Virus record (IMG/VR): IMGVR_UViG_2534681938_000038
Strand: one strand, 5' to 3'
Length of the DNA: 23,820 bases
From: a virus
Taxonomy: Duplodnaviria; Heunggongvirae; Uroviricota; Caudoviricetes
This document shows, piece after piece, positions 20,801 through 23,800 of this stretch (positions are counted from its first letter, which is position 1; each line of letters begins with the position of its first letter). A program made the position numbers.

Positions 20801-23800
20801 CGGACTTGTGCAAGTTGCCAGGAGGATCTGGAGCTTATCAGTAAACAGAGAGGTTCGAAGTGAGCGAAATTAATTATCAGGCACTGCGTGAAAAGGCAGA
20901 AAAAGCAACTAAAGGAAGCTACATCGTAGGGCATACATCTGTTAACCAGCACGGCAATTTAACAGGAGTTTTTGTTTGCCAAAAATGGAAAGGAGAACCC
21001 GGTGGCGTGATTGCGGAATGTCATGTTAACTGCCTGATTGAATCAGATGCTCAGGCTTATGCAAACGCTGAATTCATAGCAGAGGCTAACCCGGCTACCG
21101 TGCTGGAACTGCTGGATGAACGGGAAAGAAACCAGCAATACATCAAACGCCGCGACCAGGAGAACGAGGGGATTGCGCTTACGGTTGGGAAGCTGCGTGT
21201 TGAGCTTGAAGCAGCAAAATCAAAACTCAACGAGCAGCGTGAATATTACGAGGGAGTAATCGCGGATGGAAGTAAGCGCATAGCAGAACTGGAAAAACAA
21301 TGCGCCGAATGGGAGCGAAAAGCATTAAGCAACTTTGAAGAGTGTGCTGCGATGGCTGAACGTATCGAAGAGATGCAGACAAAATCTGCACCAGATTCGT
21401 TTGGCATCATCGGTGAAAATATTCGAACACAGGACAATCGAATAACGTCAGATCCCATGTTTTGTGTGTATCAAAAGCGCGAAATCGCTGTTGATGCTGA
21501 TTATGACCATGACCGGATTGTCTGGGTTGACGAAGATGGCAATGAAGCCAATAAACGCCATAGTCGTCGTCTCGAGCTACTTCATGAAAACTTTCGAGAG
21601 CCACCAGAAAAATGGCGGCGCGTTGCTGTGAAAGATATTGATGAATTCGTTACCTGCTGTTTCACCGAACAGGGTTGTAAAGACTACCTGGCAGTCAATG
21701 GTCACAATCTTCGCTTGCCATTTATATATGTAAAAAGCGGTTTCAGGAACGCTGAATATATCGGCATAAGAAACTGGCTTGCTGGCATTCGCATCAAAGG
21801 AGAGTGATATGGCGTTAACACACCGCGAACTCTGTCAGATTGCGTACAAGTTCCTTAAGCGCAACGGTTTCAAGGTTTGTTTTCATGACCGCTTTATAGC
21901 TGTAACCAGTACCGGAGAACAGCCAGATGCTATGGGATTCAGAAATTCAGCATCATGCCTGATAGAGGCGAAATGTTCTCGTGCTGACTTGTTGGCAGAT
22001 AGAAAAAAGCGTTTTCGTAAAAATCCGTCTCTTGGAATGGGCGACTGGCGATTCTTTATTAGTGAGCCGGGAATTATTTCAATTGAGGATTTACCACCTG
22101 GCTGGGGATTACTTCACGTTGTTAACGGAAGAGTACGGAAAGTACATGGGTGGCCCAAGGGTAATTGCTGTTGGGGTAATCCTGACGATAAGCCATTTAC
22201 TGGAAATAAGTGAATGCGATTACATGTTGTCTGCATTAAGGCGCATGGAGTTGAGAGGGCACCTTAATGAAATATATGACGGTGTAATTGTTAATAAGAA
22301 AGAAGGAAACGCGGCATGACCACTATTACCGACAAAGAACTGATTAAAGAAATCAAAGAGCGCATAGGCAGCTTGGACGTTCGAGACAATATTGAGCGCC
22401 GTGCTTATGAAATTGCACTGGCATCGCTGGAAGCAGAACCGATAGCGTGAGAATGCGGTGAAAACATAATCCTGTTTAACCCTGACACAGTTGAAGCATA
22501 CGCAAAACGTGCGGAAATATCACCTAAACCACTATTCTCCGCGCCGCCAGCGCTGGTAGTGCCTGATAAGTTGCCGCGTGAATACAGAAACGGTTGGCCT
22601 CTTGCGTATAGTGATTATGCTGAAGGCTGGAACGACTGCCGCGAAGCCATGCTTCAGGGAGATAAATCATGATTAATCGTATCAAGCTGGAGCACATCCT
22701 CGAATATGCCAGGCAGCAGAGGCATATTGGTCAGCATTGTAAAATTCCACCAGGAGATATGGTTGAAATCATGGAGATTGCCATGCGCAAGGCTGGCAAC
22801 TCTCCGGTAACTCCGGATGGTTGGATAAGCTGTAGTGAGCGAATGCCGGAGAAATACGATTTCGATATCTGGGTATTCTCTCCATCCAGAGGTGTTCTTG
22901 ACGGGCTACAGTGGGATGGCTCGATGTTTACTGATGATGAATATCAGTTCGTTATTCATGACGCCACGCATTGGATGAGAAAAGTATATCCAGCAGCACC
23001 GCAGCAGGATGGTGAATGATGCCGCCAGTTAAAGTTGTGATTATCACTTTGGTGATGATAGTGATTGCGAGAATCATGTCTGGTGAAATTGTGTGGATAT
23101 GGTAATGGCTAAGGCAGCAGCAGAGCGCAACTAACAATCCTCGCACTCGCGGGGATTTCTTTTATCTGAACTCGCTACGGCGAGTTTTGTTTTATGGAGA
23201 CAAGAAATGTCAGATTTGGCTATGAAGGTTTTGAAATGGCAATCAACTGGCGATGTCGGCATCAGTAGCGCAACTCTTGCCTCAATCGCATGTGGCCTGA
23301 AAAAGAATATCTATGGTCATGGCTTCGGTGCTCCACATGACGCAGCCGATTTCAGACGATGCGTTGCACTTGTTGAGCAGATTCCAGAAATCAGAGATTC
23401 ATTCGACAAGGTTGCAAAGCGCGTTCCGGCATTCAAAGGAATCCTCAACGAATGGGATTCCCTCGTTGCTCTGTTGAAGTCTGAAATGAAGATACACGGA
23501 AACAAAGCACCAGAGACTTACAGAAGAATCAGCGAGCTACGCAAGGACTAACGCCTCACACTCGATGAGGCCTGTTCATATCTGATAGAGCCGCTATATG
23601 GCGGTTTCTTTTTGCCTGGAGAATTAAGATGACCGATACCAGCCTGATTCCTGAGAAAGAAGTGATGAACAAGCTCGGTGTTTCATCACGTCAGACAATC
23701 TGGAACTATACCAAACGGCACGGATTTCCGAAGCCAGTCAGAACCCACCCCAAATCATACCTTCGTGAAGCTGTTGAAGGGTGGATTCTTAACGGTGGCG

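Follow-up and report, generated by a model that had tools for sequence, protein, structure and literature searches.

The exo-xis region of lambdoid phages is transcribed early, is dispensable for replication and is highly mosaic outside a conserved cassette (PMC10834534). The accessory genes of this region in lambda and Stx phages, namely orf60a, orf61, orf63, orf73, ea22 and ea8.5, belong to the pL-driven early-left part of the genome (PMC10834534). The gene described here shares this location but, unlike those genes, lies outside the set of cassette genes that have been studied. Our literature search on DUF551 returned the exo-xis context only (PMC10834534) and nothing on this gene, and the search on phage 2851 and stx2c returned only a typing-tool preprint.

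The window, that is, the entire stretch of DNA analysed (23,820 nt; IMG/VR record IMGVR_UViG_2534681938_000038), matches Enterobacteria phage 2851 at 100% identity, and Stx2-converting phage 1717 at 99.8% identity, over everything from position 6760 onwards. In complete chromosomes of E. coli O157:H7, the same DNA constitutes the integrase-proximal arm of a prophage adjoining sbcB. Locally, exo is followed by four small genes, an Ead/Ea22-like gene, a 171-aa gene (starting at 21809), the interrupted gene that is the subject of this work, a DUF551 gene, two small genes, int and sbcB, so that the setting is the exo-xis (early-left) region, between ea22 and int. We conclude that the interrupted gene is very probably a pseudogene of a 118-aa accessory gene of the PHROG 5117 family, inactivated by a G-to-A change at 22450 in a phage 2851-type sbcB prophage of O157:H7.

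The interrupted reading frame and its protein family

The gene starts with an ATG at 22316 that is preceded, with a spacing of 8 nt, by AAGGA at 22303-22307, and its first 44 codons encode MTTITDKELIKEIKERIGSLDVRDNIERRAYEIALASLEAEPIA. The initial annotation had described a 44-codon ORF closed by a TGA at 22448-22450, a frame that stays open for 73 further codons up to a stop overlapping the next ATG, and a downstream part with no plausible start of its own. Sequence and translation bear out all of these coordinates, including the ATGA overlap between the original stop of the gene (TGA, 22670-22672) and the start of the DUF551 gene (ATG, 22669). The absence of a plausible start is confirmed as well: the only in-frame candidates soon after the TGA are the non-canonical ATA 22466, ATC 22469 and CTG 22472, and the first canonical one is GTG 22559, which leaves 37 aa. 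No Shine-Dalgarno-like sequence was found upstream of GTG 22559 or of CTG 22472, the codon from which the annotators of phage 2851 start the "C-terminal half". Reinitiation on the remnant was considered and rejected given the lack of a credible in-frame start; the out-of-frame ATG at 22453 leads to one sense codon before a stop (ATG CGG TGA). On composition alone, an open run of 73 codons after the TGA has a probability of about 0.02, and, when the inter-stop intervals of the window are taken in all six frames, 5.6% are 73 codons or longer. By this measure, the open extension is mildly unusual, which is suggestive but not decisive alone.

Table 1 Features of the interrupted gene and its neighbours, in window coordinates.
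Feature	Position	Strand	Evidence or remark
Ead/Ea22-like gene	20860-21807		PF13935
Upstream neighbour, also a pseudogene in the window	21809..22319	+	Comparison with E32511, reconstruction
N-terminal part of the interrupted gene, 44 sense codons, still translatable; N-terminal helical-hairpin module	22316..22447	+	ORF translation, phrog_5117, AF2 model
Premature stop TGA (W45*)	22448..22450	+	A at 22450, as against G (TGG, Trp) in intact orthologues
C-terminal remnant, 73 codons and original stop	22451..22672	+	phrog_5117 match, comparison with intact copies
DUF551 gene, 116 aa, intact	22669..23019	+	Pfam PF04448, E = 4.9e-10

Homology provides the decisive information on the open extension. 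When the stop codon is replaced by TGG, the intact protein aligns with the phrog_5117 profile over residues 1-117, covering positions 1-125 of 125 (E = 5.6e-58). The two parts also match the same profile separately and in the expected order, the 44-aa part at positions 1-48 (E = 2.6e-21) and the 73-aa downstream translation at positions 50-125 (E = 1.1e-28). The full-length profile match, together with the early-left location between an Ea22-like gene and int/xis, identifies the gene as a member of PHROG 5117, and the open frame is not a chance occurrence because its translation is homologous to the family. A Pfam scan of the intact protein yielded no family at E <= 0.1.

A search of a collection of 5.8 billion proteins yielded 1,644 homologues, mostly of 113-207 aa, and in many of them the protein is fused with a DUF551 domain. 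Mosaicism is pronounced in this family: the N-terminal helical region is variable, the "IALASLEAEPxA" hinge is conserved and the middle module exists in alternative versions, with, in addition, an "AAPPxxVVPD" linker and, at the C-terminus, a "GWNxCRxAML" segment. All aligned homologues with the "ECGENIILFNPDTVEAY" middle module have Trp where the window has its stop, and homologues with another middle module have E, S or Y there. The N-terminal part of the gene is also widespread at the DNA level: its first ~125 nt (up to 134 nt) recur with 85-98% identity in 2,206 of the 5,426 genomes, where this DNA opens genes annotated as DUF551-domain protein, YfdT or Eaa. The premature stop sits 2-3 codons past the mosaic junction at which this common N-terminal module ends.

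An AlphaFold2 model of the intact protein, built from a 48-sequence alignment, is of moderate confidence (pLDDT 72, pTM 0.46). Residues 6-19 and 25-39 form the two helices of a helical hairpin, and residues 42-47 and 50-53 form a beta-hairpin whose first strand contains W45. Then come a helix (56-66), a strand (71-74), a proline-rich linker modelled with low confidence and, at the C-terminus, a further helix (100-114). A Foldseek search of the PDB with this model brought up nothing meaningful: the best E was 1.5, and the hits were for the most part alignments of 33 columns to HIV gp120. Judging from the model, the truncated product would comprise the N-terminal helical hairpin only and would lack the beta/alpha unit, the proline-rich linker and the "GWNxCRxAML" helix.

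Ancestral codon and distribution of the TGA allele

Intact counterparts of the gene were found in several related prophages and phages. In VT1-Sakai (prophage Sp15), the same place is occupied by H0067, an uninterrupted 357-nt CDS, and in phiSTEC801-Stx1a by an uninterrupted CDS in which codon 45 is TGG. Nucleotide alignment of the window with VT1-Sakai over the 357 nt reveals a single difference, A at 22450 (TGA) versus G (TGG, Trp). Strain E32511 carries a prophage at the same sbcB site in which the gene is intact (WP_000207903.1). This prophage and the TGA-bearing prophage of FDAARGOS_293 have in common the accessions for Ea22 (WP_001289930.1), the DUF551 protein (WP_000610373.1) and the integrase (WP_001007946.1), and over 5.5 kb (18319-23820) the E32511 prophage differs from the window at only 6 sites: besides 22450, these are three SNPs and, in the upstream gene, two small indels. 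In phage Stx2c_WGPS8, which belongs to the same genus as 2851, the gene differs from the window only at 22450 (G), and both this gene and the upstream one are intact. Strain 10671 carries a TGA copy in the sbcB prophage and a TGG copy in the prophage at mlrA/yehV.

Thus, the sense codon TGG is present at the stop position in VT1-Sakai, phiSTEC801, the E32511 sbcB prophage, WGPS8 and the mlrA-site prophage of 10671. Given that the orthologues in the closest prophages have TGG, the TGA is a derived state that arose by a G-to-A transition within one prophage lineage. Position 22450 aside, the remnant (22451..22672) shows 0 differences from the copies in WGPS8 and E32511 and from the Sp15-type copy. 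The initial annotation had proposed that a gene of about 118 aa recently acquired a nonsense mutation, and this is borne out by the comparison with orthologous prophages, a check that the annotation itself had put forward and that recovers a sense codon, TGG (Trp), in 357 nt that are otherwise identical. The orthologues contradict the opposite scenario, in which a 44-aa gene stands by itself and unrelated sequence comes after it; both halves are parts of phrog_5117.

The spread of the two alleles was traced in 5,426 complete E. coli genomes with 61-nt queries centred on codon 45, where identity of >=99% amounts to an exact match. Among the approximately 402 records that contain the locus, 109 match the TGA 61-mer and 369 match the TGG 61-mer. 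At most 26 records can have the TGA allele only, and therefore at least 83 of the 109 records with the TGA must contain, in another prophage, an intact copy as well. All serotyped TGA carriers among the matches listed are O157; the TGG allele is found in O145:H28 and O111:H8 as well. The sampled records with the TGA allele are 100% identical to the window over the 357 nt and contain no secondary mutations, and the identical allele is present in five independently deposited phage genomes (2851, 1717, F349, WGPS4 and WGPS6). The exact 44-aa product is encoded on 547 contigs, and the intact protein on at least 997. The lesion is common to phages 2851 and 1717 and 109 complete chromosomes, which makes the TGA a fixed marker of the one near-clonal prophage lineage to which it is restricted and excludes a sequencing error.

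The gene immediately upstream carries a second lesion. In the window, its ORF (EP2851_06 in phage 2851) occupies 21809-22213, encodes 134 aa and stops at 22213. Relative to E32511, the window lacks 5 nt (CAGGT) after 22210. Restoration of these nucleotides produces a 171-aa ORF, the TGA of which (22317-22319) overlaps the ATG of the interrupted gene at 22316, and extends the match to phrog_9263 from positions 62-193 of 230 (313 bits) to positions 62-230 of 230 (412 bits). The reconstructed gene and its intact counterpart in WGPS8 agree at 516 of 516 nt, and PGAP labels the upstream locus "frameshifted". Other copies of this gene are damaged at other sites: in E32511 and in the mlrA-site copy of 10671, it is broken by a change of AGA to T at 21964-21966, with a 58-aa product, and the phiSTEC801 copy leaves the 171-aa frame at yet another, third site, after residue 91, with a 122-aa product. 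WGPS8, with both genes intact, thus represents the ancestral state, and the 2851/1717 lineage, to which the window belongs, has lost both members of a translationally coupled pair. The base at 22450 (G/A) and the 5-nt deletion after 22210 mark the phage 2851/1717 sub-lineage against WGPS8 and the E32511-type sbcB prophages.

Interpretation of the interruption

A single G-to-A transition at 22450 converted codon 45 from TGG (Trp) to TGA, so that translation from the ATG at 22316 would now end after 44 residues. The 222 nt past the TGA are an unmutated remnant, and the lack of mutations fits a recent event, possibly combined with homogenisation against the identical copies in sister prophages. 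Two circumstances presumably make the loss of the gene tolerable, namely, that the exo-xis accessory region is dispensable and that a second prophage supplies most carriers with an identical intact paralogue. That the coupled upstream gene is broken too suggests that the exo-xis arm of the prophage is decaying. A point against the pseudogene reading is that the remnant has zero further substitutions and no sign of decay besides the stop, and therefore relaxed selection is not demonstrable from sequence alone. As for the gene downstream, the DUF551 gene retains a GGGAG of its own at 22657-22661 and hence is probably still translatable; its protein is the same accession in the TGA-bearing and the TGG-bearing sbcB prophages. 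With its coupling to the interrupted gene lost, polarity on the DUF551 gene is possible.

The preserved downstream frame could also be explained by functional recoding, whereby the UGA is decoded on purpose, through programmed readthrough or as selenocysteine, and yields a regulated low amount of the full-length protein. The perfect preservation of that frame speaks for such a mechanism. UGA is the leakiest stop codon of E. coli and the one most readily misread by tRNA-Trp, and misreading at codon 45 would restore the exact wild-type protein, with its Trp. However, the TGA is restricted to a single near-clonal prophage lineage, the codon reads TGG in sister prophages inserted at that site, and PGAP handles the locus as a pseudogene. 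Furthermore, the residue that corresponds to the UGA is Trp and not Cys, and homologues do not share the UGA. As for recoding ALTERNATIVES, the 81 nt at 22440-22520 fold no better than shuffled versions (z = -1.2, with 28 of 200 shuffles at least as good), and no Rfam match at E <= 1 was found within 22000-23100. The nucleotide after the stop is G, reportedly not the weak-termination context for UGA (Poole, Brown & Tate 1995). Thus, with no RNA element, Trp rather than Cys and no conservation of the UGA, neither programmed readthrough nor selenocysteine is supported, and we regard recoding as extremely unlikely. Stop-codon readthrough, which the initial annotation had kept as a secondary option, is accordingly unsupported in any programmed form, although tRNA-Trp may incidentally misread the UGA at a low level. 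An error of sequencing or assembly, or a frame that is open by chance behind an independent 44-aa gene, has next to no chance of being correct. A probability of about 0.02 for the open run is not negligible genome-wide, but the part after the stop, once translated, aligns with the C-terminal two thirds of phrog_5117, and the identical TGA allele recurs in 109 complete assemblies and in the five independently deposited phage genomes; this allele recurrence and the homology refute both variants.

The remaining question is whether the short product does anything. Because the stop falls 2-3 codons after the mosaic junction, the 44-aa product is a complete module and could conceivably keep some activity. 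It might then be a functional micro-protein, for example, a dominant-negative or competing partner of prophage proteins with the same module, including the intact paralogue in the same cell. The Shine-Dalgarno sequence and the start codon are intact, the stop lies just past the boundary of a module whose DNA is common to 2,206 of 5,426 genomes, the AF2 model predicts a self-contained helical hairpin, and at least 83 of 109 carriers have, in addition, a gene for the full-length protein, in which the module is identical. Nevertheless, no natural homologue among the best matches ends at the stop position, and the shortest complete one listed, of 82 aa, keeps the C-terminal helix. TGG to TGA is, moreover, among the commonest nonsense changes, and the breakage of the neighbouring gene is consistent with neutral decay, so we consider a functional micro-protein very unlikely. 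It is similarly improbable, on the whole, that the TGA allele is non-neutral in any of these ways, be it through a low dose of wild-type protein produced by tRNA-Trp misreading or through a 44-aa hairpin that interferes or partners with the paralogue and with module-sharing prophage proteins. If it were, cross-talk between co-resident Stx prophages in O157:H7 would be tuned by this allele. In any case, the locus offers a clean natural TGG/TGA pair that could serve as an in-genome reporter of UGA misreading.

Comparison with annotated records and relatives

The pseudogene reading agrees with what public records already hold. RefSeq/PGAP labels the locus as pseudo, with an "internal stop" (CEP72_RS31180, BFL17_RS31595); and "pseudogene" is the label in the phage records (AP012538/AP012539; WGPS4, with Stx2c_WGPS4_05, and WGPS6). 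In the phage 2851 record (FM180578), EP2851_05 and EP2851_04 are given as "N-terminal half" and "C-terminal half", the latter from CTG. Since the interruption is already labelled in these records, the finding is already known: the gene is an ordinary pseudogene of a Stx2c-type prophage, one that public annotation has flagged. Automated annotation is already correct for this locus, and to that extent the finding matters little. Separately, the 44-aa fragment circulates in databases under the misnomer "valyl-tRNA synthetase, partial".

Among the named relatives, HK022 gp36 (HK022_36, AUM59812.1) and other members of PHROG 5117, 660, 60 and 3323 resemble the gene in their N-terminal module, which is near-identical in DNA to about nt 122, in the "AAPPxxVVPD" linker and the C-terminal "GWNACRxAMLxG" helix, and in their position after an Ea22-like gene. 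In contrast to the gene in the window, they have an unrelated middle module, as befits a mosaic family, and some carry a fused DUF551 domain. The closest match is the intact orthologue itself, represented by H0067 (BAB19623.1) and its equivalents WP_000207903.1 and Stx2c_WGPS8_05 (BAT32675.1). Like the interrupted gene, it is flanked by an Ea22-like gene upstream and a DUF551 gene downstream, with the ATGA overlap, in the exo-xis region of Stx phages; unlike it, codon 45 is TGG instead of TGA, which is the sole nucleotide difference. The RefSeq and GenBank records of the locus are 100% identical to the window over 22250-22720 and embody the same reading, one gene interrupted by a stop. What the present comparison contributes beyond these annotations is the ancestral codon (TGG), the frequency of each allele, the presence of an intact paralogue in the same genomes and the second lesion in the coupled upstream gene.

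Disruptions of the upstream 171-aa gene

The gene immediately 5' of the TGA-interrupted 118-aa gene is also a pseudogene in the window. Loss of CAGGT after position 22210 shortens its product from 171 to 134 aa and uncouples the ATGA overlap between this gene and the start of the 118-aa gene. The intact version is present in phage Stx2c_WGPS8 and is identical to the reconstruction obtained by restoring the 5 nt. PGAP labels the upstream gene 'frameshifted', with an extent of 21809-21987 only, because the call was modelled on a 58-aa truncated relative.

Close relatives carry other lesions in the same gene. 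In the copies of the E32511 sbcB-site prophage and the strain 10671 mlrA-site prophage, the product is 58 aa (WP_001356547.1, phrog_16308), and in phiSTEC801, the gene is disrupted at a third position, yielding a product of 122 aa. This repeated loss of the 171-aa gene among close relatives might hint at a cost. In our own reading of the intact protein, which has no Pfam match, its D41...E53-A-K55 pattern is reminiscent of the PD-(D/E)XK nucleases.

Features of the window and of the comparison sequences
Feature	Location	Strand	Remark
IS66-family transposase	window 1-1539		
TonB-dependent receptor ORF	window 2960-5134		724 aa
IS3-family insertion sequence	window 5452-6761		1310 nt; inverted relative to the 11273-12582 copy
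IS3-family insertion sequence	window 11273-12582		1310 nt; inverted relative to the 5452-6761 copy
Upstream pseudogene	window 21809-22319	+	5-nt deletion, CAGGT after 22210
N-terminal module, widely shared	window 22316-22441	+	5'-terminal ~125 nt of the 118-aa gene, 134 nt at most
Disrupted 171-aa gene, E32511	L007:3491-4000		AGA to T at window 21964-21966
Disrupted 171-aa gene, strain 10671 mlrA-site prophage	L006:3491-4000		AGA to T at window 21964-21966
Disrupted 171-aa gene, phiSTEC801	L003:1059-1566		171-aa frame left after residue 91

Paired insertion sequences and the left end

The two IS3-family copies, 96% identical and 4,511 nt apart, are both IS629-sized, and each encodes orfA (108 aa) and orfB (296 aa); one of them lies in the early/replication region of the prophage. 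In window 1-6761, the DNA left of the first copy is not that of phage 2851, and the junction (window 4300-7900) is spanned by none of the 5,426 complete E. coli genomes searched. The segment with the receptor and the IS is separated from the 118-aa gene region by 67.4 kb in the complete O157:H7 genome FDAARGOS_293 versus 18.0 kb in the window, and therefore ~49 kb is absent from the latter. This absence is consistent with an IS-mediated deletion that removed the prophage's late (stx-side) portion, as well as with an assembly join at an IS.

The truncated product and its N-terminal module

The exact 44-aa sequence is UniProt B6DZS4_9CAUD and is recorded on 547 contigs. NCBI deposits of this product (window 22316-22447) and of near-identical fragments bear the name 'valyl-tRNA synthetase, partial', which is misleading.

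The N-terminal module was found in 2,206 of the 5,426 genomes, at 85-98% nucleotide identity, where it forms the 5' end of genes with a DUF551-domain protein, YfdT or Eaa annotation. In HK022 gp36, near-identity to the 118-aa gene extends to about nt 122 and then gives way to divergence, which marks a sharp mosaic junction.
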